The position numbers and the translations under genes were made by a program. Positions 3,355 to 48,234 of a stretch of 64,000 nt of DNA are shown piece after piece. Below the pieces are notes generated by a model that ran no database searches, was not told the origin of the DNA, and saw only the letters and a list, made by a program, of their open reading frames with translations. The first letter of the stretch is position 1. Every line of letters starts with the position of its first letter. Origin of the DNA: Minisyncoccota bacterium. Lineage in GTDB: Bacteria; Patescibacteriota; Microgenomatia; UBA1400; UBA12028. Location of the stretch: contig DNEP01000013.1 in the NCBI GenBank assembly GCA_003487265.1, forward strand, positions 230,706 to 294,705, in the 5' to 3' direction.

Positions 3355-4215
3355 TTACGCGTTGCGAAACTCCTCGAGAAGAGTGCGCTGTTTACGACTG
3401 ATTCTTTCGGGAATATCGATAATAATACGAACATAATGGTCGCCACGACTGGAAGAGCGGAGATGTTTAATGCCTCGTTCTCGTAGTCGAATCATTGTGT
3501 GTGATTGCGTTCCTGGACGAATCTTGAGTTCGAGTTTTTCATCAATCGTTTCAACTGTCACGACTCCACCTAAAATCGCGGTAATGAGATCGATATGCGC
3601 ATCGGCATAGATATCAGCGCCTTCTCGTTGAAATGTTGTATGAGGCTGAACATCGATCGTCACATCAAACTCGTCGAATCGAATACGCGTTCCATCATCG
3701 ACACCCGCGGGGATCTTAATCGAACGACGTTTTCCGTCAATCTCAACGGTTTTTTCAACACCTTTCACCGCTTCCATAAATGGAAGCGTCATGCTGTATC
3801 TTGGGCGACGTTGCTGACGCGAGGAAAACGGGTTTCCACCAAAAAAACTTTCAAAAATCTGAAAAGGATCGCCAAAATCTCCCGAAGAAGCTCCGCCGAA
3901 CGGGTTTCCTCCACCATACGAGTAGGTGTACGTGAACGGCCCCTGTTGCGCGCCACCGGCGAACGGATTTCCTCCCATGCCCGCAGAGGGATCAAATGCT
4001 GAATGACCAAATTGGTCATAGGTCTTTCTTTTTTCTTTATCACCGATTACTTGATACGCCTCGTTGATTTCTTTAAATTTTTCCTCTGCATCCGAAGCCT
4101 TGTTTCTGTCGGGATGGTATTGAAGCGCGAGTTTACGATAGGCAGCCTTAATCTCCGCGGGAGTCGCGGTTTTTGAAAGACCCAATATTTCGTAATAGTC
4201 GCGCTTCGTCGCCAT
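3355..4215 (-). CDS. dnaJ: DnaJ-like co-chaperone (J domain + C-terminal substrate-binding domains, no Zn-finger CxxCxGxG repeats; CbpA-type)
   Basis: J domain with HPD (KRDYYEILGLSKTATPAEIKAAYRKLALQYHPDRN), a G/F-rich linker, no cysteine repeats. ATG at 4215 has an AAGGA RBS. It is the last gene of the hrcA-grpE-dnaK operon. Confidence 0.85.
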   Translation of the reverse strand: MATKRDYYEILGLSKTATPAEIKAAYRKLALQYHPDRNKASDAEEKFKEINEAYQVIGDKEKRKTYDQFGHSAFDPSAGMGGNPFAGGAQQGPFTYTYSYGGGNPFGGASSGDFGDPFQIFESFFGGNPFSSRQQRRPRYSMTLPFMEAVKGVEKTVEIDGKRRSIKIPAGVDDGTRIRFDEFDVTIDVQPHTTFQREGADIYADAHIDLITAILGGVVTVETIDEKLELKIRPGTQSHTMIRLRERGIKHLRSSSRGDHYVRIIIDIPERISRKQRTLLEEFRNA

Positions 4216-4263
4216 ATATCCTTTTTTGCTCGTCAAAAAACAGTACTGTTTACCCTGCAGGAA

Positions 4264-6213
4264 TTATTCTGCGATCTCGCCTTCTTCAACAGGTCCATCG
4301 GTTTTTTTGGAAGACTGATCTTCTGTTTTTTCTGAAGACGATGTCGTGTCCGATGCATTTTCGGTTTTTGCCTGAGCATCTGCTCCTGCTTGCCCCGCTT
4401 TCGCCTGTGCTTCTTGAGCCTGACGCATCACTTCTCCGATTTTTTGAGCCGATTGATACGTCGATTCAATCGCTTTTTCAAGATCTTCTTTTGAAGACTC
4501 TGGTTTTTCTGCGAGTTCGCGCAATTTTTGCACGTTTTCTTCAATGGATTTTTTATCATTCTCATTGAGTTTGTCACCGTATTCCTTCAACTGCTTTTCG
4601 ATCTCGAACGCAACGCCTGTTGCTTTGTTTCGCGTCTCCACTGTTTCTTTTTTGATTTTATCTTCCGCAGCGAATTTTTCTGCTTCAGCCTTCATTCGCT
4701 CAACTTCCTCTTCGGAAATATTTGTGGAGTTTTGAATCGTGATCTTTTGTTCTTTCCCCGTCGTTTTTTCTTTTGCCGAGACGTGGAGAATTCCGTTTGA
4801 ATCGATATCAAATGTCACATCGACTTGAGGAATACCGCGTTGCGCGGGGGGAATACCGTCGAGAATAAATCGGCCGAGCGACTTGTTATCCGCCGCCATT
4901 TCGCGCTCACCTTGAAGCACGTTGATCTCCACCGAGGTTTGGTTATCCGCAGCAGTCGAGAAAACTTGCGATTTGCTGGTAGGAACGGTTGTGTTTCGCT
5001 GAATAAGAGCGGTGCGCACACCTCCAAGCGTTTCAAGTCCAAGCGTGAGTGGAGTAACATCTAGCAACACCACATCTTTCACATCGCCCGTAATCACACC
5101 CGCTTGAACTGCGGCTCCAACCGCCACCACTTCGTCGGGATTTACCCCCTTATGAGGTTCTTTCCCAAAGAATGCTTTCACGCGTTCTTGCACTTTCGGC
5201 ATACGCGTCATTCCGCCAACCAACACAACTTCGGAAATTTCCGATGCTTTGACTTTGGCATCGTCAAGCGCTTTTTGGACAGGAACAAACGTTTTTTCAA
5301 TCAGAGCATCGACAAGCTCCTCCAACTTTGATCGAGTAAGCGTCATTGTTAAATGGAGTGGCCCATTTGGTCCCTGCGCGATAAATGGCTGATTGATCTC
5401 TGTTTGCTGTGCAGAAGAAAGTTCAATCTTCGCTTTTTCGGCGGTGTCACGAATGCGCTGCAACGCCTGAGGGTCGGATTTTAAGTCGACACCGTTCTCT
5501 TTTTTAAACTCGGATGCGATGTAATCAATAATAACCGCATCAAAATCGTCCCCTCCTAAGAAGGTGTCTCCATTGGTAGACTTCACTTCGAACACTCCAC
5601 CACCAATCTCCAAGATCGAGATGTCAAACGTGCCTCCACCCAAATCGTAGACCGCGATCACACCTGACTCTTTTTTATCTAAACCGTACGCAAGCGCGGC
5701 AGCGGTGGGTTCATTCAAAATACGTTCCACTTTCAAACCAGCGATCTCTCCCGCTTGTTTGGTTGCCTGCCGTTGCGCATCATCAAAGTACGCAGGAACA
5801 GTAATCACCGCTGAATCAACTGTTTCTCCCAAATATGCTTCTGCATCTGTTTTCGCTTTTGCGAGAATTTTCGCGGAGATTTCTTGTGGCGTGTATTTCT
5901 TTTTGTTGATTTCCACCACGGCCATATCGTCTTTGCCTGCAACAATAGTGTACGCAACGCGTTCGATTGTTTTTTTGACTTGAGCATCGCTGATTTTGCG
6001 ACCCATCAATCGCTTCACAGACATCACTGTGTTCTTTGCGTTCAACACAGCCTGTCGTTTCGCGGATGTACCAACCAAGTTTTTAATTGGCTCAACAATC
6101 GAAGGGAAGGTGTTCGCACCTTCTGCGGTTGTAATAACAACGGGCTTTCCCTGCTCCATAACCGCAACTGCTGAGTTTGTTGTTCCTAAATCAATACCAA
6201 TGACCTTTGACAT
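4264..6213 (-). CDS. dnaK: Molecular chaperone DnaK (Hsp70)
   Basis: Canonical Hsp70 signatures ([32 protein letters not shown]) and a strong AGGAGGA RBS. 649 aa. Confidence 0.97.
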
Positions 6214-14478: not shown

Positions 14479-14874
14479 TTATCTGATTACCGTTCCATTT
14501 GCAACTGGCGTTTGTAATGGTGTTAAGGTGGGTCTTGCAGAATCATCAAGATTCCCATCGATTGTATCCGCCATCAACATCATTCCCTGACTCTCTTCGT
14601 CACCCATTTTCTTTGGTTGTAAATTAAACACAAACGGATATTGTTTTCCTATGAGATCCTCGGGTGAGTACCACGCACGAATTCCAGAAAAAAGCGTGCG
14701 TTTCCCGAGTGGACCAAAATCCACAATATATCGAATGAGTTTTTTGGACCAATCGGGCAGAGATGCCTCGATTACCGTACCTGCACGAATATCGAGTTTT
14801 GAAAATTCATCGTAAGAAATTGTTGGTTTTAAAGCCAAATCGTCCAGATTATTCATGTCTGCAGATTGTACCAT
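14479..14874 (-). CDS. tRNA-binding domain protein (CsaA/Trbp111/MetRS C-terminal-domain-like OB fold)
   Basis: Motifs LDIRAGTVIEA...KLIRYIVDFG...YSPEDLIGKQYPFVFNLQPKKMGDEESQGMML are typical of the Myf/EMAP tRNA-binding domain. Located immediately downstream of trpS. Confidence 0.75.
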   Translation of the reverse strand: MVQSADMNNLDDLALKPTISYDEFSKLDIRAGTVIEASLPDWSKKLIRYIVDFGPLGKRTLFSGIRAWYSPEDLIGKQYPFVFNLQPKKMGDEESQGMMLMADTIDGNLDDSARPTLTPLQTPVANGTVIR

Positions 14875-31281: not shown

Positions 31282-32262
31282 TTAAAAAATCCAGTTAAAG
31301 AGATACCCCATCATCATAATTCCCGTTATTGTAATCCCAAAGAACAATCCTAATAACTGCCAGCGCATCACCTTTTTCAAAATCATCCCCTCAGGAATAG
31401 AGATCGTAACAATTGCCGTCATAAACGCGAGCGCTGTTCCGAGTGGCACCCCCTTACGTACCAAAGCCTCCATAATGGGAATAACGCTCACTGAATTTGC
31501 ATAAAGCGGTGCACCAAGAAAAGTTGCAAAGGGGATTGAGTACCAAGACGTATCAGAAAGATATGTTTCTACAACTCTCGCGGGTACAAATCCATGAATC
31601 ACCGCACCAACTCCAACCCCAAGAATCACATACGGGAAAATCGTTTTCGTAATCTGCATGCCATCTTGCCACCAATATCGCATCAATGTGAAAAGTGGTA
31701 ACGTATTGCATTTATTTTCTGTTTCCACATCAATGTGAGATTTCATTCGCAACAATTCCTGTTTGATATATTTTTCGACATGAAGGCGTGAAATGAGCAT
31801 CCCTCCAAGAATACTTATTCCTATTCCAACAATGTTGTAGAGTAACGTCACCTTCCATCCAAACATCGCGGGAAACAAATACATGGATGATTCATTCACC
31901 AAAGGTGAACTAATCAAAAATGCAAACGTAACAGCCAAGGGAATACCCGCCCGCACAAATCCAATAAAAAGAGGAATTGAAGAACAAGAACAAAACGGTG
32001 TGATTACTCCCAAAACTGCCGCCAACACATACTCAATGCCGTACCACCTTCGTTTCGATAACATATCTCGCACTTTTTCCATTGGAAAATAATATCGTGT
32101 CATAGCCATGACATAGTTGATAACGATGAGGAGAACGCCTATTTTAATCACATCATAGATAAAAAAAGCTGTCGCACTTCCCAAATAACTATCTCTTTCC
32201 ATTCCAAACCATTTGTATGAAACCGAATCTGCAAAAAATTGTATTGGTCGAAAAATATCCAT
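31282..32262 (-). CDS. UPF0718/ArsP-like permease (CxC-motif permease)
   Basis: Polytopic membrane protein with the TPFCSCSS motif. Paired with the downstream small thioredoxin-fold protein, as is typical for this family. Confidence 0.8.
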   Translation of the reverse strand: MDIFRPIQFFADSVSYKWFGMERDSYLGSATAFFIYDVIKIGVLLIVINYVMAMTRYYFPMEKVRDMLSKRRWYGIEYVLAAVLGVITPFCSCSSIPLFIGFVRAGIPLAVTFAFLISSPLVNESSMYLFPAMFGWKVTLLYNIVGIGISILGGMLISRLHVEKYIKQELLRMKSHIDVETENKCNTLPLFTLMRYWWQDGMQITKTIFPYVILGVGVGAVIHGFVPARVVETYLSDTSWYSIPFATFLGAPLYANSVSVIPIMEALVRKGVPLGTALAFMTAIVTISIPEGMILKKVMRWQLLGLFFGITITGIMMMGYLFNWIF

Positions 32263-32264
32263 AG

Positions 32265-32510
32265 TTATGCTTTGCGTAACGCGCCTTTTATTTTTTCGAT
32301 GTCGGGAATAAACCCGACCATTGCCACCTTACCATCAATCACCAACACCGGACTACTCATGACTCCCAACTCGATCATCTTCTGTATGCCATCGTCACCG
32401 GTGATGTATTCCACCATATCTTTCATTCCTAGGTCACGCGCAACACTCACCACCATTTCGTACATTTTTTTACACTTCAAACAACCTGTCCCCAGTACTT
32501 GAACGCGCAT
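32265..32510 (-). CDS. Thioredoxin-family small redox protein (redox-active disulfide protein 2-like)
   Basis: 81 aa with a GCLKC redox motif (MRVQVLGTGCLKCKKMYE...). Adjacent to the CxC permease. Confidence 0.8.
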   Translation of the reverse strand: MRVQVLGTGCLKCKKMYEMVVSVARDLGMKDMVEYITGDDGIQKMIELGVMSSPVLVIDGKVAMVGFIPDIEKIKGALRKA

Positions 32511-32650
32511 ATTTTTCTCCTGTGTTACGGTGGTTATACGTACGTATTCTTCAATGATAACCTATACTTGATTGACAATGTGTGAAGAAATCTTTTTTCA
32601 GTCATTCGTCAATGTCAAACTCGGATCCTTAGTTTGCACTGTTTCATTTG

Positions 32651-33136
32651 CTAAGTAAACTCAGTAAACCCCATCATGGGTTTTTGAGAATCCACCCATT
32701 TTTCCGCTTTTTCGAAAAGTTCTGGATGCTGTTCTCTTCCTGTTTGGGGATCAAGCGCAACTTCACGAGCATGCTCAATATTACCCGTTTCTATTAGAGA
32801 AGCAATCACATTATGCTCAACCATGCTTCTAAGTTTCATAATTGAAACAGAAATTCCAGTTCTATCACTTAACAAAACAGTTGCTTCTAATCTTTCAGCT
32901 TCAAATCGATGACCGAAGAACGATTCGATTGCCGCATTTGTCATGCTTTCACTCAACTGAAAACTTCGATGATTTAGTGCTTCTGCTACTAGTTTTTCCC
33001 GTTCTCGTTTCTCTTTTTCTTCTGGGGAAAGCGTTTCCCACTCTCTCTTTTCAGCTATACGTCTTGCTTGAATGGCTGTATTTATTTTCTCCATGTCGAA
33101 CACGGGTCTTTGCCCATTGTTTTCCATTTTATTCAT
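32651..33136 (-). CDS. Hypothetical protein
   Basis: ATG at 33136 is preceded by a perfect GGAAAGGAGGTGA RBS. Glu/Lys-rich soluble protein with no recognized motif. Confidence 0.5.
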   Translation of the reverse strand: MNKMENNGQRPVFDMEKINTAIQARRIAEKREWETLSPEEKEKREREKLVAEALNHRSFQLSESMTNAAIESFFGHRFEAERLEATVLLSDRTGISVSIMKLRSMVEHNVIASLIETGNIEHAREVALDPQTGREQHPELFEKAEKWVDSQKPMMGFTEFT

Positions 33137-33243
33137 TTTTATCACCTCCTTTCCAAAAAACCCTCGCACCCATCTATTCAAAGAAGAATAGACAAGGGCG
33201 AGGGTTCTACAACACACGCGGTACCACCTTGTTTTTCATTTAG

Positions 33244-33278
33244 TACAAAAAAGGCATTCCTGTTTCCTTGGAATGCCT
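33244..33278 (-). terminator. Rho-independent terminator (9-bp perfect stem AGGCATTCC/GGAATGCCT + U7 on the minus strand)
   Basis: Plus-strand sequence aaaaaAGGCATTCCtgtttccttGGAATGCCT. On the minus strand the hairpin is followed by TTTTTTT. Confidence 0.6.
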
Positions 33279-33495
33279 CGAAATTTTTGCAATAAATGCT
33301 CATTTTCGAGTGCTCCGACAGTGCCGACACACTCTTTCAGCTGTCACGGGCATACCCGTAAACCTTAATTGATGTGTATCTTTAGGGTTTAGGCTCAAGA
33401 GGGTAATTCAAACATGATCGTTCGGGAAGACTTGCACCTACCGCTTCCTCTCTCTTGTCACCGATACTGCTCTACTATTTCTCTGTCAAAGCTTG
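33245..33495 (-). ncRNA. Candidate small RNA (about 250 nt) with its own promoter and terminator
   Basis: Minus-strand TTGCGA-N16-TATAAT promoter at about 33496-33523, no ORF longer than 17 codons, internal hairpins (CGGGTATGCCCG), ending at the strong terminator at 33244-33278. Confidence 0.3.
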
Positions 33496-33628
33496 TCGGA
33501 GTATTATACGCGAAAGAAGAGATATCGCAATATGCAAGTTTGTTACTCAATTGTGAACCAATTTTGTCCTTGGTAAAAATCGTACGCCCACCATATTCAT
33601 ACTTGCTCGATTAGTCTATTATTAACTC

Positions 33629-34078
33629 ATGAATCTTTTTCAATGGTTTTTGATTGTTTTTGCTTTAGGTAACCTGTTTCTTTTTGTTAAAGCACGCAAA
33701 GAATGTCAAAACAGTAATTCGTATGGATTAACAAAGGCTCTTTTTCTGTTGGGGATGTACGTTTGGGGTGATGTTCTTATTTTTAGTCTTTTCTGGACAA
33801 GTGTTGCGCTCATCTGCCTGATTGTTAACAATGTGTATCTCTTTTTTACCTTTGTCAGTCTTTTTTGGGTGGTGAGGAGTTTTGGTGAAACAATGTATTG
33901 GTTTCATCAGCAATTTTCAACGGTGAGAAGAGAGCCTCCAGAGAAAGTTGAACTCTATTCACTTGTTCACAACGATTCCGTTTGGTTTATTCAGCAAGTC
34001 AAAAATCAATGCATAACTATTCTTTCGCTCGTGATGTCCATTTATTTTTCTGTGCTTTGGATCAAGACGGGATTTTGA
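33629..34078 (+). CDS. Hypothetical membrane protein
   Basis: 149 aa, ATG start, four hydrophobic helices, no known motif. Confidence 0.45.
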   Translation: MNLFQWFLIVFALGNLFLFVKARKECQNSNSYGLTKALFLLGMYVWGDVLIFSLFWTSVALICLIVNNVYLFFTFVSLFWVVRSFGETMYWFHQQFSTVRREPPEKVELYSLVHNDSVWFIQQVKNQCITILSLVMSIYFSVLWIKTGF

Positions 34079-34174
34079 GTTCATCTGGAAAACACAAAAG
34101 AACAAATACAGATATAATTATCTGCTGTTCCATAATCCATAGCATCATTCTGCTGAGTTCATAACGAGCAAACT

Positions 34175-34474
34175 CTAAATTTGACCGAAAAAAAGCAAAA
34201 GTAAAACAACAACTGTAATAATTGCAAAAACGCTAACCGTTTTCGCAAATAGATCAACCGCTTCTTTTTTCTTTCCTTCAATAAAAAATTGGAGTGGCTG
34301 GTAAAAAAACAAAAACGCCATTACCACAACTGAAAGGACAAGTACAAATAAAACCATGATTGGTGCAAAAAAAGTATCAGGTTTGGCCTTTAAAGGTTCA
34401 GTCGCAAAGGTCATAACAAAGACAACCAAAACAATATACACTGAAGCACTTAACGCATTAACAATGGGATTCAT
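34175..34474 (-). CDS. Hypothetical small membrane protein
   Basis: About 100 aa with three hydrophobic helices. ATG at 34474 (the track start is TTG). Confidence 0.45.
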   Translation of the reverse strand: MNPIVNALSASVYIVLVVFVMTFATEPLKAKPDTFFAPIMVLFVLVLSVVVMAFLFFYQPLQFFIEGKKKEAVDLFAKTVSVFAIITVVVLLLLFFGQI

Positions 34475-34550
34475 TGACACATGCAAATTTTATCACATTT
34501 GGCACCTAGAAGGTTGGTACTCGAATGAGGGGGTGGATTGAGAAACGGAT

Positions 34551-34778
34551 CTACAACTCGCTCACATCTTCAACATATTCAAATCGAGGAATCGCTCGAC
34601 CGTCAACGATCACGTTCTCTTGAAACTTGTTAAGTGGTCGTACCCAGAGTTGACCTTTTGGGTTGGGATATAAGCAATAGTAGACAACGAGTTGTTCTTG
34701 AGTTTCGCTATGCAACGCCACACCAATCACTTGATAGTATTTCCCTTTATAGTGTTTGTAAGTTCCCAATCGTAGCAT
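34551..34778 (-). CDS. DUF1653-family protein
   Basis: 75 aa with YKHYKGKYYQV...LVVYYCLY signature. Confidence 0.7.
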   Translation of the reverse strand: MLRLGTYKHYKGKYYQVIGVALHSETQEQLVVYYCLYPNPKGQLWVRPLNKFQENVIVDGRAIPRFEYVEDVSEL

Positions 34779-34817
34779 CGCATGCTCCTAGTGACAATTT
34801 AATTTTCATTATTCCTC

Positions 34818-35102
34818 TCATCCTGCACTGACTCCATTTGGAACGTCTTTTTCGGGCATTGTAAGAACAGGGGTAATTCCATTTGTATATCCAATATCAA
34901 ACAGCATCCCTTCAGAAACTTCCCCCGCCATCTTTCTTGGTTCGAGGTTCACAACAAATAATGCTTGCTTTCCAACGATTTCGCTACAATCTTGACGTTC
35001 TTTCTTCATTCCAACAAGAATCGTGCGTCGAAATGTGCCGAAATCAACCATAAGTCGAATGAGTTTATCTGAACCAGAAATATCATCAATTTGCTCACTT
35101 GG
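34818..35102 (-). pseudogene. N-terminally truncated paralog of the tRNA-binding-domain protein (CsaA/Trbp111-like)
   Basis: In-frame translation upstream of the ATG at 35051 continues the domain (PSEQIDDISGSDKLIRLMVDFG...) up to a TAA stop at 35103-35105. No start codon covers the first beta-strand. It is homologous to the intact copy at 14479-14874. Confidence 0.45.
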
Positions 35103-35468
35103 TTATATAAGAACAGATTCTTTTTTCTTGGCTGTGGCGGGGGAAATACAAACGGAATCGTCACTATTTCAAACAAACCGTGGTGTCTTAACGACAAAAT
35201 GTTCCACTTTTCCGATATGCTTTTCCAAGCCCACTTTATTGTTTCAATATGTCTTTCGATAAGCGCAGTCAGCCTTGCACTTTACTGTCGACTCGTTGAA
35301 AAGAAACCACTTCAGGCAAAACATGTGTGGATACTGCTTTTGAGTGAGATTCCGATCCTATTCATTTTTCTGGTGATGAGTTTATGGAAGTGAGTTGAAA
35401 ATGACAAGATTTACGAGGTGGGTGGAAAATTATTTCATTAGAGTGTCTAGGGCATACGTTTAAGGAAA

Positions 35469-36215
35469 TCAATCACTTCTTGCATGCTTGAAAGATTTCA
35501 ACAACGGCTTTTCCCAGCCAAAACATGTTTCTCGATTTTTCAACTTATCAAAAGCATTGATACAACTCGGGTCCAGCTTAACAAATTCCTGCAAAAGAAC
35601 AACTACTTCCTCAATAAACCCGCCTACCTCACCATCCGAGTCATCAACTCCGCCAGTACATAGCTTCTTGTCTAATCTTAAGAGTAAATCAATCAACAAC
35701 CCTGCTGTTTGAATACTTACGGGCAAATCAGAGATGACAACAGATAAACGATTGCAACCTTCGGAGAGCGAATTTTGGTAGGCAAACCAAGTACGAGACG
35801 GACCAGTGTAGGCTTTGATGTATTTCAGGGAAGATGTAATCGTCTTTTTTGCAGCGATCAGCTCATTCTGTGATAAGGTTCCCAACTTTCCACTACAAGT
35901 TGGATTTGGGACCAGTTTCTTATCATTATCGGTCAATGGCTTTCCATCCTGAACCACATAAATTGCCAAAGCAACCATGTGCTTGCAGAGCGTGCCGTTG
36001 ACCCCTAAATAACAAGTACAGTGGCCATAATCATATCGTCGGGCTTCTACTGAGACTTGGTATGGTTTTGTTCCTTTGACAACAGCTGTGTACGATCGAA
36101 TACCCTCTTCTACTTGGGTGACTTTATCACTTTCGTATAAGCCCACTGCTTTCTCGAATGTTGATCCATCTGTGGCGAACTTGATTTTATCGAGGGTAAA
36201 GTCAGGCTGGTTCAT
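35469..36215 (-). CDS. SWIM zinc-finger domain protein
   Basis: SWIM CxC...CxH motif (YDYGHCTCYLGVNGTLCKHMVALAIY). Its start overlaps the last 14 nt of the upstream Fic gene. Confidence 0.7.
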   Translation of the reverse strand: MNQPDFTLDKIKFATDGSTFEKAVGLYESDKVTQVEEGIRSYTAVVKGTKPYQVSVEARRYDYGHCTCYLGVNGTLCKHMVALAIYVVQDGKPLTDNDKKLVPNPTCSGKLGTLSQNELIAAKKTITSSLKYIKAYTGPSRTWFAYQNSLSEGCNRLSVVISDLPVSIQTAGLLIDLLLRLDKKLCTGGVDDSDGEVGGFIEEVVVLLQEFVKLDPSCINAFDKLKNRETCFGWEKPLLKSFKHARSD

Positions 36216-37365
36216 TTGATTTTTTAATTTCTTCTTTGCTCACAAACAAATCCAGATATTTCTTATACCAAAATTCCCTGCCGTACTCGATATCTTTATC
36301 TCTTTGTTCAAGAATTCCCAACTCGACAAGTTTTTTAACTAATTCATTGGCCTGAGGACGTGAAAGCTCCGTCCACTCTTCAACTTTTTTAACGCTAACA
36401 ATCGGAAGCTTATAAAGGTTTTCCAAGACCGTCATACCAGTTATTGTTCTCCTGCCTAAAGATTGAATTTTTATAGTATCTGTTTGACGTAAGATGTTGA
36501 TTTTTTTCGATGCTTTAATTGCTTCTGCAGCTATGATAGCAACACCATCCAAAAAGAAGTCAAGCCAGCCAGAAACGTCAGCATTTTCCTGATGATAGGA
36601 ATTTAATGATCCATAATATGTCTTTTGATTATTCAAAAAATATTCAGATAAATAAAGTACTGGCCTCTCCAGGATTCCTAGCTTGCATAGGTAGAAAGTA
36701 GTTAAAAGCCGCCCAGTTCTACCATTACCATCTAGAAATGGATGGATTGTTTCAAATTGGGCATGAGCTAAAGCTGCCTTAATAAGTGGCGGATATTCGT
36801 CAGTAGTATGCAGAAATTTTTCAAAATCATCTAAACACCGATTCATTTCCGTATGTGTTGGTGGCACAAACTTCGCAGTATTTGGAGAACCTCCTCCAAT
36901 CCAGTTTTGCGAAATTCTAAATTCACCCGGCGTTTTGCCAGGAGCATCGATCGTGCCACCAATCAATACCTTGTGAATTTCTCGTATAAATCTAAGCGAC
37001 AGAGGTAGCGTCTCTAATCTTTTCAAACCATATTCCATTGCGTGGATATAATGAACAATCCTCTCGACATCTTGAGGAAAACGGCTTTCAATTTGTGCCT
37101 CACTTTTAATAACGTCGATAATAGTTGCTTGGGTGCCTTCAATTTCACTTGACCGAGCCGCTTCTTTGCGAATGTACATAAAAATGAAGAAGTCTAAATC
37201 AGGCAGCAGCTGGGTAATACCATCTAATTTGCCCAACATAAGGGCAGCCTTGGCATGAAGCTGTTGAGTTTTGGAACTCAAGACAATCTGTTCCTTTGGA
37301 GGGAACTTATCTGGGATAAATGCCTGGTACCCACTAGGTTGTTGGATGAGTTTACCGATTTTCAT
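36202..37365 (-). CDS. Fic-family protein (class II, with inhibitory S/TxxxEG helix; DUF4172 N-terminus; C-terminal winged helix)
   Basis: Fic motif HPFLDGNGRTGRLL, inhibitory motif SSEIEG, N-terminal YQAFIPDKFPP (DUF4172-like). 387 aa. Confidence 0.85.
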   Translation of the reverse strand: MKIGKLIQQPSGYQAFIPDKFPPKEQIVLSSKTQQLHAKAALMLGKLDGITQLLPDLDFFIFMYIRKEAARSSEIEGTQATIIDVIKSEAQIESRFPQDVERIVHYIHAMEYGLKRLETLPLSLRFIREIHKVLIGGTIDAPGKTPGEFRISQNWIGGGSPNTAKFVPPTHTEMNRCLDDFEKFLHTTDEYPPLIKAALAHAQFETIHPFLDGNGRTGRLLTTFYLCKLGILERPVLYLSEYFLNNQKTYYGSLNSYHQENADVSGWLDFFLDGVAIIAAEAIKASKKINILRQTDTIKIQSLGRRTITGMTVLENLYKLPIVSVKKVEEWTELSRPQANELVKKLVELGILEQRDKDIEYGREFWYKKYLDLFVSKEEIKKSNEPA

Positions 37366-37490
37366 ATGCCTAACATCTTTCTATTAGATGTAAGGATTAT
37401 AATAACTATTCCTTACATCTGTCAAGTGGATGTTAGGTTTGGACTTTATGTCAGTTTGTGTAATTTAGTGGTTGTTTCGGTTAGTTACTG

Positions 37491-37562
37491 CTCCCCGACG
37501 TGGATTCGAACCACGAACCATCTCGTTAACAGCGAGCCGCGCTACCGTTGCGCCATCGGGGA
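37491..37562 (-). tRNA. tRNA-Asn (anticodon GUU), 72 nt, CCA not encoded
   Basis: Hand-folded cloverleaf. Acceptor TCCCCGA/TCGGGGA, D-arm GCGC-AACGGTA-GCGC, anticodon loop CU-GUU-AA, T-arm CGTGG-TTCGAAT-CCACG. Confidence 0.8.
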
Positions 37563-37644
37563 TCGTACAAACAGTTGTTTTTACATCTCGAGATCGCATT
37601 GTCCGATCGATCAAGATGCGAATATTGTACCATGATTTTTCGGT

Positions 37645-38538
37645 TCAAAAGAGGAACAGTCCAACCTTTTCCCAGCATCCGGGATACTCGACTGTCGCCC
37701 CCCCAAACCGCAGCTTAAACTCGGTGAAACCCCGCCAGCTTTTAATCGGGAAGCGGTCGTCGAGGATTCCATCAAAATCGTAGGTTTTTCTGCCCAATTT
37801 TTTGGCATACAAAAAGCTTTTCCAGACCGTCCACGTGTGCAACCGATGTTTTCGCGACACCTCGTCGCCGAACGCGCGAAAATAATAGATCGCATCGTCC
37901 GAACTCAACAGCAATATCCCGCTGTGCATCTCTCCAGTCGCAGTATTTCGCGTGATTGCCAGATCAAGCTTGTCGCCGTATCCCCCAACAAGCGCCTGAA
38001 ACTGCTTTTGGTTAAACCACCAAAACTTTCCATCCTGAATACCTTTTGCCTCAAAAGCATCAAACTCTTTTTTACGCGCCAAAAACTCGGCACCATTGAT
38101 CATCACTGTTTCATACCCCGATCGCATTGGTTTCGACAGAATGCGCTTGGGATTTTCACGCAGATCTTCTAGGAGCGAAGATTCTGTTTGTGTGAGATCG
38201 ATGCGCAGTGTTTTTGTGCAGATGTATCCGAATTTACTTTGGCGTAATCCCAACCGCTTCACAAATTTTAGTAGCGCGTTCTTCTCTACATCCTCAGCAG
38301 GCTCAACGCAAAGATACCGTACACCCCATTTTTTCATCAACCCTCGCAATTCCTTAAGATCGGGAATTGATCGAAATCGCTGAATTTTCATCGCCGAGAA
38401 AAAATAGAAATTAAAAATATGCAAAATCGGCCGAATATACACCTGAATCACCGAACCATCTTCAACATGTACATGCTCAACTTTCCACCCCTGTAGCCGT
38501 AGGAACTGCGCGTGTTGAGGAGATTGGCGAATGTCCAT
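37645..38538 (-). CDS. FemAB-family peptidoglycan aminoacyltransferase (lipid II peptide-bridge formation)
   Basis: FemAB/GNAT-like architecture, about 300 aa (…WWFNQKQFQALVGGYGDKLDLAITRN…, C-terminal FKLRFGG). Family-level call from overall similarity. Confidence 0.7.
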   Translation of the reverse strand: MDIRQSPQHAQFLRLQGWKVEHVHVEDGSVIQVYIRPILHIFNFYFFSAMKIQRFRSIPDLKELRGLMKKWGVRYLCVEPAEDVEKNALLKFVKRLGLRQSKFGYICTKTLRIDLTQTESSLLEDLRENPKRILSKPMRSGYETVMINGAEFLARKKEFDAFEAKGIQDGKFWWFNQKQFQALVGGYGDKLDLAITRNTATGEMHSGILLLSSDDAIYYFRAFGDEVSRKHRLHTWTVWKSFLYAKKLGRKTYDFDGILDDRFPIKSWRGFTEFKLRFGGATVEYPGCWEKVGLFLF

Positions 38539-42725: not shown

Positions 42726-43706
42726 ATGCAGTATAGATGGACAATATCACAAGAATCTAACAATCAGCTTACAGAAATAGATATGCAAAAACGCATGTTT
42801 GACGTTCTTCCTCCGCTTAATAAATCAACACAACACTTTGTTCATGAATCAACAATGAAAAGTTCGCTGTACTCGGCAAAAATCGAAGGGAATCCGCTTA
42901 CTGAAACACAATTCTCTCAAAATGAAGGTCAAGGACAGCACTTGCTGGAAGTCCAAAATCTAACACAGGCGTATGATCAAATCTCAAAAATGGAAAATAC
43001 GATCACGTTCTCACAAATCAAAAAACTGCATGCGATTGTGATGAACGCCCTATCCTCTTCTACAGGACAGTTTCGAAAAGAAATGGTTGCCGTGTACAAC
43101 AAGGCAGGAATCGTGGAATACCTTGCACCCCCTTGGCAAGAAATTGAGACGCGGATAACTCAACTTCTTGCTCAAATAGGTGACAGCTCCATTCATCCGA
43201 TCGTCGCTTCAGCAGTGTTGCATTTTGGTTTTGAAAAAATTCACCCCTTTATGGATGGAAATGGACGTGTTGGCAGACTACTCGCTTCAGCTTTTCTTAA
43301 TAAATCTGGATATGGATTCCGTGGAACATTGTCAATTGAAGAGCAACTCCATGAGCAAAAAAGTGAATATTATGACGCGCTTTCTTTTTCTGATGCGAAT
43401 GCAACTGAGTTTGTAACATTCTGGATTCGCGCAGTGCGAGACCGCGCTCTTCATGTATTTGAACAATACACTCAACTCAAATCACTACCAGAAAGAAAAG
43501 AGGATTCGCTCCTTCCTCGTCGAAGAGAGATTCTGTTGATCATTCGAGATCATAAACAAGTAACTTTTGATTTTCTGCATCGGCGATTTCTTCGCATTCC
43601 CTCAAGTACGCTTCATTTTGATCTCGAGCAACTTCAAAACGAGGGGTTTGTGACAAAAGTCGGTCAAACTCGAGGAGCGTTTTATATTGAAAGCCAAAAA
43701 ACGTAA
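42726..43706 (+). CDS. Fic-family protein (class II, second copy)
   Basis: Fic motif HPFMDGNGRVGRLL, inhibitory motif SAKIEGN, C-terminal wHTH-like region. Confidence 0.85.
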   Translation: MQYRWTISQESNNQLTEIDMQKRMFDVLPPLNKSTQHFVHESTMKSSLYSAKIEGNPLTETQFSQNEGQGQHLLEVQNLTQAYDQISKMENTITFSQIKKLHAIVMNALSSSTGQFRKEMVAVYNKAGIVEYLAPPWQEIETRITQLLAQIGDSSIHPIVASAVLHFGFEKIHPFMDGNGRVGRLLASAFLNKSGYGFRGTLSIEEQLHEQKSEYYDALSFSDANATEFVTFWIRAVRDRALHVFEQYTQLKSLPERKEDSLLPRRREILLIIRDHKQVTFDFLHRRFLRIPSSTLHFDLEQLQNEGFVTKVGQTRGAFYIESQKT

Positions 43707-46801: not shown

Positions 46802-48234
46802 ATCTTCTCTTTTGCTTCTCGCAGTCGCTCAATCGTCTTCTCTCGCCCCAACACCTCCATCGTTTCAAACAGGGGTGGAGTCGCGGTTTTTCCCGTAACA
46901 GCAACGCGAATCATCATAAAATATTGTGATTTTTTCCAGTCGTATTTTTCTTGCAATGATCGCAAACATGTTTCAAGCTCAGCAACACTCCATTGCGACA
47001 GTTGTTCAAGCTCAGCAATTGTTCGCGTAAGTTGTTCTGTCACCACACCCGCTTCAGATTTTTTCAACAATTCAGCAGGATTAACCGAAATATCTCGATA
47101 GAAAAAGTCGGTGAGCGATTCGAGATCACTTAAAAGCACCAAGCGTTCGCGAACCAATGGCAAGATTTTCCCCATGAGATCCATTGGAAAATCGGTGGGG
47201 GTAAACGGTTGTAATGCTTCAATGAGCTGGTCCTGCGTCAATTTTTCGCGAATATAGATGCCGTTCATCCATGCGAGTTTATTCAAATCAAAAATAGGAC
47301 CAGTTGTTTGCATACGATCAATTGTGAACACGCGTCGAAACTCATCGAGATTGAAGATGTCCTTTCCCTCAGGATGCGACCATCCCATCAAACATAAAAA
47401 GTTGATCAAGGCTTCGGGAATATATCCCTTGTTCATATAACTAATCAGCGACACATCATTTTTTCGTTTTGAAAGTTTCGAGTGATCGGCATTCCGAAGT
47501 AACGGCATGTGCGCGAAAGTTGGTGTCTCCCACCCAAAAGCCTCATACAAAAACAAATGTTTTGGTGTTGAGCTGATCCATTCTTCACCTCGAATCACAT
47601 GCGAAATCTGCATCATATGATCATCAACAACAACGGCGAAGTGATAGGTTGGAAATCCATCTGACTTCAACAGAACTTGATCATCAATCAGCGCATACTC
47701 AAACGAAACGTGACCCCGAATCGCATCCTCCCATTCAGCTTTTCCTGAATCGGGCATACGCAAACGAACAACGTGTTTTTCATGTTTGGCGCGCTTCTTG
47801 GCCTCCGCATAGGGGATATGCGAGCATCGCCCATCGTACATTGGAAGTTGCTTCTGTTTTTGTTGCTCAGCGCGCATAGCCTGCAACTCTTCTGGCGAAC
47901 AAAAACAATAATACGCCGTTCCGTTCTCCAAGAGTGTCTCAACATGCTGATGATAAATCTCTAGTCGCTCCGACTGTCGATATGGTTCAAACGGGCCTCC
48001 CAAATCAACACCTTCGTCGTGAGGAATCTTCAACCAAGTAAGTGCATCGTAAATAACCTGCTCCGCGCCCTCAACAAACCGCCCTCTGTCCGTATCTTCG
48101 ATACGAATAATAAATTTTCCATTATGATTTTTCGCAAACACGTAGTTGAATAACGCGATATACGCAGTTCCAACATGTGCAATCCCTGTCGGAGAGGGGG
48201 CGATACGGGTTCGAACGGTTAAAAAGGAACTCAT
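46798..48234 (-). CDS. gltX: Glutamate--tRNA ligase
   Basis: HIGH-type motif (PSPTGIAHVGTA) and KMSKS-type motif (KLSKRK). 478 aa. Confidence 0.95.
   Translation of the reverse strand: MSSFLTVRTRIAPSPTGIAHVGTAYIALFNYVFAKNHNGKFIIRIEDTDRGRFVEGAEQVIYDALTWLKIPHDEGVDLGGPFEPYRQSERLEIYHQHVETLLENGTAYYCFCSPEELQAMRAEQQKQKQLPMYDGRCSHIPYAEAKKRAKHEKHVVRLRMPDSGKAEWEDAIRGHVSFEYALIDDQVLLKSDGFPTYHFAVVVDDHMMQISHVIRGEEWISSTPKHLFLYEAFGWETPTFAHMPLLRNADHSKLSKRKNDVSLISYMNKGYIPEALINFLCLMGWSHPEGKDIFNLDEFRRVFTIDRMQTTGPIFDLNKLAWMNGIYIREKLTQDQLIEALQPFTPTDFPMDLMGKILPLVRERLVLLSDLESLTDFFYRDISVNPAELLKKSEAGVVTEQLTRTIAELEQLSQWSVAELETCLRSLQEKYDWKKSQYFMMIRVAVTGKTATPPLFETMEVLGREKTIERLREAKEKI

Follow-up and report, generated by a model that had tools for sequence, protein, structure and literature searches.

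The stretch of DNA analysed here, referred to as the window, comprises 64,000 nucleotides of contig DNEP01000013.1 (positions 230,706–294,705) from the Minisyncoccota bacterium assembly GCA_003487265.1. It contains a gene for a Fic protein that overlaps a gene for a SWIM zinc-finger protein, which we call SWIM. Both open reading frames (ORFs) are on the minus strand. The Fic gene (36202–37365) encodes a class II, SoFic-type protein of 387 residues, and the SWIM gene (35469–36215) encodes a protein of 248 residues. The last 14 nucleotides of the Fic gene are also the first of the SWIM gene (36202–36215). A tRNA-Asn(GUU) gene is located upstream on the same strand, 125 nucleotides from the Fic start (37490–37562); it was identified by ARAGORN and is the sole Rfam match in the block (RF00005, 62.8 bits). 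The acceptor (3′) end of the tRNA abuts a conserved leader of the Fic cassette, which begins exactly there and is approximately 135 bp long (37358–37497, minus strand), as delimited by blastn and alignment A3. An initial annotation of this DNA, made from the sequence, had described the ORFs, their overlap, the tRNA-Asn and the flanking genes, and all of them were found where it had placed them.

The Fic protein is composed of an N-terminal dimerisation and inhibitory helix, a Fic core, and a domain of the winged helix-turn-helix type (wHTH) at the C-terminus. It matches the Pfam families Fic_N (formerly DUF4172; E=6.5e-22) and Fic (E=1.5e-20), and residues 312–355 weakly match the Pfam family MarR_2. 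The active site HPFLDGNGRTGR at H208–R219 (HPFLDGNGRTGR) fits the consensus HxFx(D/E)GNGRxxR. The inhibitory motif SSEIEG (S72–G77), which fits (S/T)xxxE(G/N), is located within the Fic protein itself. Both the active site and the inhibitory Glu76 are intact, and the two motifs are kept in other SWIM-linked Fic proteins; S72, I75 and E76 are invariant in an alignment of seven of them. The PADLOC model of SoFic matches residues 12–374 of the window protein on model positions 5–358 of 361 (E=1.7e-108). A phmmer comparison with SoFic crystal chains aligned residues 38–373 with chain positions 39–361 (E=5e-33) and placed SSEIEG opposite the SSEIEN of SoFic. The score against the NCBIfam SoFic equivalog NF046030 is 163.5 bits, below the cut-off of 550 bits. 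Because the score is so far under the cut-off, the Fic is classified from its sequence as a distant subfamily of the SoFic-type class II family and not as a SoFic ortholog. SoFic is a toxic enzyme and a single-gene defence (PMC12249575). It AMPylates switch I of EF-Tu, and its dimer binds its own promoter less than 100 bp from the start codon (bioRxiv 10.64898/2026.07.09.737422). The window has another class II Fic gene approximately 5 kb away (42726–43706, plus strand). Its 326-residue product carries the inhibitory motif SAKIEGN and the sequence HPFMDGNGRVGR and ends in a wHTH-like region; its identity to the first Fic is 27%, and it has no SWIM neighbour.

A sequence scan of positions 34400–37700 identified a single 12/12 match to the sigma-70 consensus, located upstream of the Fic gene (37396–37425, minus strand). 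It consists of TTGACA (37425–37420), an 18-nucleotide spacer and TATAAT (37401–37396), and is kept upstream of most Fic relatives. The region between Fic and SWIM yielded no good promoter in the same scan. Because of the 14-nucleotide overlap, the strong promoter present only upstream of Fic, and the lack of a good one between the genes, the two are likely co-transcribed as one operon, as the initial annotation had claimed. Inverted repeat I1 and the surrounding sequence reveal four 9-bp putative operator half-sites (37369–37437, minus strand): CCTAACATC (37437–37429), GATGTAAGG (37419–37411), CCTTACATC (37395–37387), and GATGTTAGG (37377–37369). The half-sites alternate in orientation and bracket the −35 box and the 5′ untranslated region. 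At least four copies of an 8-mer within 90 nucleotides upstream were detected in 47 of 78 Fic-relative loci, compared with 4 of 78 shuffles; the usual half-site pattern across the loci is ><>< at about 18/37/60/79. As the Fic protein diverges, the half-sites change with it (CCTAACAT, CTTAACAT, GTTTACAT, GTTCACAT). In the metagenome scan, the promoter–operator layout precedes almost all Fic relatives of 56–98% identity, most of which lack SWIM.

Since the putative operator is found upstream of SWIM-less Fic relatives and co-varies with Fic, it appears to belong to the Fic cassette, which is predicted to be self-contained. The half-sites are most likely bound by a dimer of Fic's own C-terminal wHTH, given the covariation and the published promoter binding of SoFic/CccR. 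The co-variation of a four-half-site operator with the protein over approximately 80 natural loci backs the claim of SoFic-type self-repression, and the window Fic is probably an ordinary, autoregulated member of the SoFic type. The initial annotation had considered the architecture of the locus non-standard; this does not hold for the Fic, which is of a type described as a single-gene defence and has a putative operator independent of SWIM. The leader is approximately 96% identical in Fic locus L003 and is conserved in Fic locus L004. In the RhuM loci L001, L002 and L005, it is 72–75% identical and is a degenerate relic with poor −35 and −10 boxes. The retention of the motif in these RhuM–SWIM loci had raised the idea that SWIM binds the leader palindromes. 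The idea was rejected, because the operator precedes SWIM-less Fic relatives and co-varies with Fic, and because the RhuM leader is a relic. A perfect palindrome with 13-nucleotide arms, AACATCCTTACAT-N8-ATGTAAGGATGTT, has a core in common with the window half-site and is located in L029 (8568–8601), 1.8 kb downstream of SWIM, between an ArsR/MarR-like 97-residue gene and a small membrane-protein gene; this may be a coincidence.

The N-terminal helix and three strands of SWIM precede the zinc finger, which is followed by an all-helical domain; the strands and helix around a zinc site that define the SWIM fold are present in the window protein. The zinc ligands C66, C68, C77 and H79 form a CxCx8CxH pattern that is invariant in 21 short-form and 20 long-form relatives. 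The helical domain holds an invariant DDS(D)G motif (D191–G195), in which D191, D192 and S193 are invariant across the short and long forms. Both domain assignments of the initial annotation, class II Fic and SWIM, were borne out. The annotation had named failure of the SWIM region in profile searches as a ground for giving up its proposal. The window protein itself scores 18.6 bits against Pfam SWIM (PF04434), slightly below the cut-off of 19.6 bits, while 19 of 21 family members match at E<=0.01 with a best value of 1.8e-6, and long-form relatives reach 30.7 bits. SWIM also gave profile matches to P0260 and P0269 (1e-13 and 1e-12, respectively), and its N-terminus matches the PADLOC model PDC-S62 (E=3e-15).

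The search for relatives of SWIM returned 1916 homologues at E<=1e-3, of which those listed are 70–97% identical. The 80 genome loci with SWIM genes originate from essentially all classes of Patescibacteria, and their SWIM proteins are 58–91% identical. Clustered at 50%, the family proves compact and has 70 representatives at E<=1e-30. Its remote relatives are SWIM-DUF6880 proteins of approximately 570–600 residues from many phyla, which correspond to the PADLOC candidate PDC-S62. Over its full length, the window protein does not fit PDC-S62, as it stops at residue 248 and the C-terminal part of approximately 300 residues is missing; it has no Pfam match to DUF6880. These comparisons place SWIM in a short branch of the SWIM-DUF6880 (PDC-S62) family that is uncharacterised and specific to Patescibacteria. 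No relevant literature was found on DUF6880, on PDC-S62 or on bacterial SWIM proteins in defence. Relatives of SWIM are absent from IMG/VR, PHROGs and GenBank phages, and a phage or mobile-element origin was rejected on this ground. The AlphaFold model calculated with the long forms in the alignment is confident (pLDDT 89.2) and contains no recognisable catalytic fold and nothing else that would point to an enzyme. Because SWIM combines a zinc finger with an alpha-helical repeat scaffold that lacks such a fold, its fold and context make an enzymatic role less likely than that of a binding, sensor or adaptor protein.

The metagenome scan centred on Fic provided 55 loci with enough downstream sequence, five of which have SWIM downstream of Fic. 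The Fic proteins of the SWIM-bearing loci are at least 93% identical to that of the window, except for the reversed locus L172 (59%), and the relatives at 97% and 91% identity in L112 and L113 lack SWIM. All other neighbours of this Fic subfamily are singletons or pairs, so that SWIM is the sole recurrent one. The scan centred on SWIM covered 80 loci, including the window, and Fic was found upstream in eight. Fic genes of four other subfamilies, 19–30% identical to the window Fic, are located directly upstream of SWIM in L012, L046, L051/L067 and L068; in L012 the order is tRNA-Asn, Fic, SWIM, and the pair is distant from that of the window. The dedicated Fic–SWIM module envisaged by the initial annotation is therefore recurrent as an adjacency and spans several Fic subfamilies, but most Fic and most SWIM loci are unpaired, and it does not stand as a dedicated module.

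Rather than a new two-gene system of obligate partners, Fic–SWIM is a combination specific to this lineage. We favour, with a probability of roughly one half (about 0.52), the interpretation that this 2.1-kb block combines two separable units, an autoregulated SoFic-type Fic cassette and a short SWIM gene, which were fused into one transcription unit in this Microgenomates lineage. Neither gene would need the other, because most Fic relatives occur without SWIM and most SWIM genes without Fic. In the first unit, the consensus sigma-70 promoter would be repressed by the wHTH dimer of Fic bound at the four half-sites, and the enzyme would be kept inactive by Glu76 in its own N-terminal helix. 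Once activated, Fic may, as SoFic does, AMPylate a translation factor such as EF-Tu, and the resulting growth arrest would serve as an abortive-infection or toxin function. In the second unit, the zinc finger and helical repeat scaffold of SWIM may have a binding, sensor or adaptor role. SWIM, which has no detectable promoter of its own, would be transcribed by read-through from the Fic promoter, and the pair would be co-expressed.

The neighbourhood of SWIM is strongly polarised. The gene at position −1 shares the strand of SWIM in 67 of 69 loci, with a gap of at most 20 nucleotides in 32 of the 69. Across the 80 loci, the genes at −1 or −2 include RhuM (9), Fic (8), HsdS (5), HsdR (4), AAA_14-DUF4143 (4), PD-(D/E)XK (3), reverse transcriptase (2) and KilA-N (2). 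Another SWIM allele sits behind an AbiEi_2 gene and a 542-residue gene. Defence-type genes occupy −1/−2 in 35 of 80 loci and +1/+2 in one of 80. The genes downstream of SWIM are mostly housekeeping genes (MnmA, DnaA, YceG, Lgt). The defence or toxin genes vary widely, and SWIM characteristically follows them as the final gene in the same direction. The arrangement has an echo among the long forms, since in Verrucomicrobia bacterium S94 (L189, 5689–5988) a 99-residue HsdS (Methylase_S) fragment is located 12 nucleotides upstream of a long-form SWIM-DUF6880 gene, reminiscent of the association of the short form with restriction-modification (R-M) genes.

The slot in front of SWIM can be occupied by different cargo at one chromosomal site. 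In the syntenic locus L107, the gene order is RpoD, FemAB, tRNA-Asn, RhuM, a 142-residue gene, and SWIM; Fic in the window has thus been exchanged for RhuM and the 142-residue gene between tRNA-Asn and SWIM. RhuM was also observed behind the degenerate Fic leader in L001 (4813–4949), L002 (1029–1154) and L005 (2137–2255). In these three loci, the first three codons (MKI) are common, and homology returns 10–18 nucleotides ahead of the SWIM ATG; RhuM has here taken the place of Fic, ORF for ORF. Homology of the two proteins was rejected as the cause of the swap (hhalign probability 0.1%). A protein of 142–146 residues is encoded between the cargo (Fic or RhuM) and SWIM in L003 (5559–5999), L105 (138–578), L110/L111 and L107 (3559–3987); it has no Pfam or PHROG match and is absent from the window.

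An alternative that we regard as possible but unlikely is that SWIM is a promiscuous accessory shared by unrelated upstream effectors (Fic, RhuM, type I R-M, AbiE-like, DUF4143 ATPase), either recognising a phage or host cue as their common sensor or adaptor, or neutralising them in general. On this view, the window pair would exemplify a combinatorial "effector + SWIM" system. The upstream bias of defence-type genes, the shared strand and short gaps at −1, and the co-inheritance of the pair under purifying selection described below are in line with this explanation. So is the AlphaFold model of SWIM, which has a ZSWIM8-like "SWIM + helical repeat" substrate-receptor architecture, a similarity that is not significant in Foldseek (E=0.4). 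Hyperpromiscuous partners have a precedent (PMC10440598), and RhuM and Doc/Fic are known from equivalent positions (PMC3710099). However, SWIM is 58–97% identical whatever its partner, which is not expected of a protein contacting unrelated effectors directly, and approximately 45 of the 80 loci have no recognisable upstream defence gene. Fic, RhuM and R-M systems function without SWIM elsewhere, and the long-form relatives of SWIM are mostly solitary.

We speculate, while considering it improbable, that the short SWIM is a Patescibacteria-specific "universal last gene" of defence operons, in which a ZSWIM8-like scaffold serves many unrelated effectors (Fic, RhuM, type I R-M, AbiE-like, DUF4143 ATPases) either by sensing infection or acting as adaptor for all of them, or by braking them generally, with the Fic–SWIM pair as one case of this combinatorial system. 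Little is known experimentally about anti-phage defence in Patescibacteria (the Candidate Phyla Radiation, CPR), and SWIM represents a compact, strongly conserved, uncharacterised family found almost only at the downstream edge of defence-gene clusters (35:1). If it were a common sensor, adaptor or brake, it would constitute a new organising principle for defence loci in minimal genomes; otherwise, it is a handy marker gene for defence cargo in CPR genomes.

The synonymous divergence (dS) of Fic and SWIM is equal or nearly so in two comparisons with the window (1.43 and 1.43 for L004, 2.4 and 2.2 for L114). The ratio of nonsynonymous to synonymous divergence (dN/dS) in these comparisons is approximately 0.02 for Fic and 0.06–0.09 for SWIM, and the overlap is preserved. 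The substitution rates indicate that the pair has been inherited together under purifying selection in three lineages. The dS values of Fic and SWIM differ three- to four-fold in L003 (0.18 and 0.78) and L106 (0.20 and 0.62). Because of this difference, and because a 146-residue gene (L003) or a 111-nucleotide gap (L106) separates the two genes, Fic and SWIM appear to be uncoupled by recombination in these loci. In L106 (1–1888), two rve-family transposase genes flank the Fic–SWIM block, and the locus is non-syntenic on that side; the DNA of the block is 95% identical to the window in Fic and 86% in SWIM.

The retention of the pair across deep divergence, together with the 14-nucleotide overlap, the common promoter and the position of SWIM as the only recurrent neighbour of this Fic subfamily, would also fit a dedicated two-component system in which SWIM is the antitoxin or the target-recognition subunit of Fic. 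A downstream antitoxin has a precedent in the 47-residue AS1 encoded downstream of SoFic in E. coli H397 (PMC12249575). Nevertheless, 50 of 55 Fic-relative loci, including those at 97% and 91% identity, lack SWIM, and 72 of 80 SWIM loci lack Fic. The intramolecular inhibitory helix and putative operator that Fic has of its own, the unequal dS in L003 and L106 and the ability of a 146-residue gene to intervene between the two genes speak against such a system as well, and we consider it quite improbable.

Several of these observations also weigh against the preferred reading of two separable units. Equal dS, low dN/dS and the preserved overlap are compatible with real functional coupling, and SWIM is repeatedly preceded directly by Fic genes from several subfamilies that are unrelated. 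That defence genes are strictly polarised, always upstream and on the same strand, argues for more than co-location, and AS1 shows that a downstream gene can neutralise a SoFic (PMC12249575). At the other extreme, the adjacency could be a chance juxtaposition in a gene-dense genome, with SWIM unrelated to defence. Patescibacterial genomes are compact and have long co-directional gene runs, the gene at +1 of SWIM is co-directional too (51 of 65 loci), and housekeeping genes flank the block in the window. However, the 35:1 upstream-to-downstream asymmetry of defence-type genes, the recurrence of SWIM with several Fic subfamilies and its homology to PDC-S62 make this explanation hardly credible. 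The initial annotation had itself named chance juxtaposition as an outcome that would refute it; chance alone does not account for the adjacency, given four further Fic subfamilies upstream of SWIM, the equal dS and the low dN/dS.

The initial annotation had also proposed that the pair is part of an island inserted at the tRNA-Asn gene. A small integrative island at the 3′ end of the tRNA, with the block as its cargo and SWIM marking or even mediating its end, is in our view very unlikely. The leader starts precisely at the tRNA 3′ end, and SWIM is always at the distal edge, beside housekeeping genes. In L003, the same leader is directly preceded by a stretch similar to a tRNA's 3′ half, with T-arm and acceptor end (approximately 4200–4270), and ARAGORN found no tRNA gene in that locus. 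tRNA-Asn or tRNA-Gln genes are located upstream of SWIM modules in several unrelated genomes. The GC content is slightly lower around the block (0.38–0.41 at positions 32000–37000, compared with 0.43–0.46 across most of the window). Against an island, no direct repeat of at least 14 nucleotides was found at 30–39 kb, and the terminal 22 nucleotides of the tRNA-Asn have no second match in the 64 kb. The only additional match of the terminal 15 nucleotides in the 64 kb has three mismatches (48182–48196) and is within chance expectation. An attachment site in the form of a repeated tRNA-Asn 3′ end was sought and not found. No integrase was identified among the called genes, and the block contains neither an integrase nor a transposase. 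A tRNA is adjacent to the Fic cassette in 5 of 68 loci, all with different tRNAs, which is about what gene density predicts. The identical locus occurs in many samples in the same context each time, all contigs with an identical Fic or DUF1653 protein show one arrangement, and no empty site was found in the same species. The AlphaFold model of SWIM has no recombinase-like fold. The tRNA adjacency itself (125 nucleotides) stands, and the island is backed by neither a repeat nor an integrase.

Homology to related loci extends past the SWIM stop codon into a conserved 3′ tail (35429–35468, minus strand), where it stops in the window, according to blastn end points and the alignment of 3′ flanks. 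The genes beyond include those named by the initial annotation: a DUF1653 gene (34551–34778; Pfam E=2.3e-25), a truncated gene with a paralog and small hydrophobic ORFs. The truncated gene (34818–35051, minus strand, within the stretch 34818–35110) encodes 77 residues matching positions 23–95 of 96 of Pfam tRNA_bind; the first approximately 22 profile positions are missing at its N-terminus, and an in-frame stop is located just upstream. Its paralog elsewhere in the window (14494–14727, minus strand) is 35% identical. The fragment belongs to the flank, outside the Fic–SWIM module, and may be an edge marker of the variable region. The hydrophobic small ORFs (33629–34078, 34175–34486 and 35091–35393) have no family matches, and an ORF of 188 residues (32651–33217) has no Pfam match. 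The flanks of the window consist of housekeeping genes.

The relationship of the locus to known systems differs between its two genes. SWIM resembles SWIM-DUF6880/PDC-S62 proteins in its homologous SWIM N-terminus (E=3e-15), in the first helical domain, which is common to both, and in D191, D192 and S193. It differs from them in lacking the insert of approximately 45 residues behind the SWIM finger and the TPR-like C-terminal half of approximately 300 residues that ends in a KRNF motif. Unlike PDC-S62, which is found in many phyla and is itself only a candidate in PADLOC, the short form is restricted to Patescibacteria. ZSWIM8 (PDB 9rwz), a Cullin-3 substrate receptor, is 15% identical to SWIM and not significantly similar in Foldseek (E=0.4), and its setting, a eukaryotic ubiquitin ligase, is without counterpart here.

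The class I Fic toxin–antitoxin modules VbhT–VbhA and FicT–FicA resemble the window locus in that a Fic toxin has a separately encoded partner. Their partner brings the (S/T)xxxE(G/N) helix, whereas the window Fic carries that helix itself. In SWIM, the class I partner motif fails at its first position, which is Asn (N148-SLS-E152-G153). Residues 146–157 of SWIM (YQNSLSEGCNRL), a near-match to the Fic inhibitory motif, are invariant in the short form and not kept in the long-form relatives. Fic/Doc and RhuM toxins hold equivalent positions in type I R-M loci (Anantharaman et al. 2013, PMC3710099). Similarly, the slot between tRNA-Asn and SWIM holds Fic in the window or RhuM in L107, L001 and L002. 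Unlike those loci, the window has no R-M genes, and a constant 3′ SWIM gene is not part of the description in PMC3710099.

The pair of EcSofic and AS1 shares with the window locus a small gene directly downstream of a SoFic-type gene. However, AS1 is a 47-residue protein whose fold is not known, whereas the window gene encodes a 248-residue SWIM and helical protein from a family mostly found without Fic. The closest counterpart of the Fic is SoFic itself (Shewanella oneidensis SO_4266; EcSofic of E. coli H397), a class II Fic AMPylase that acts as a single-gene anti-phage system. The window Fic differs from it in its patescibacterial host and in belonging to a distant subfamily (163.5 versus 550 bits). 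It shares with SoFic the N-terminal helix with SSEIE(G/N), the HPFxDGNGRxGR core and the C-terminal wHTH, and its putative operator is promoter-proximal and less than 100 bp from the start codon, as has been reported of SoFic (bioRxiv 10.64898/2026.07.09.737422).

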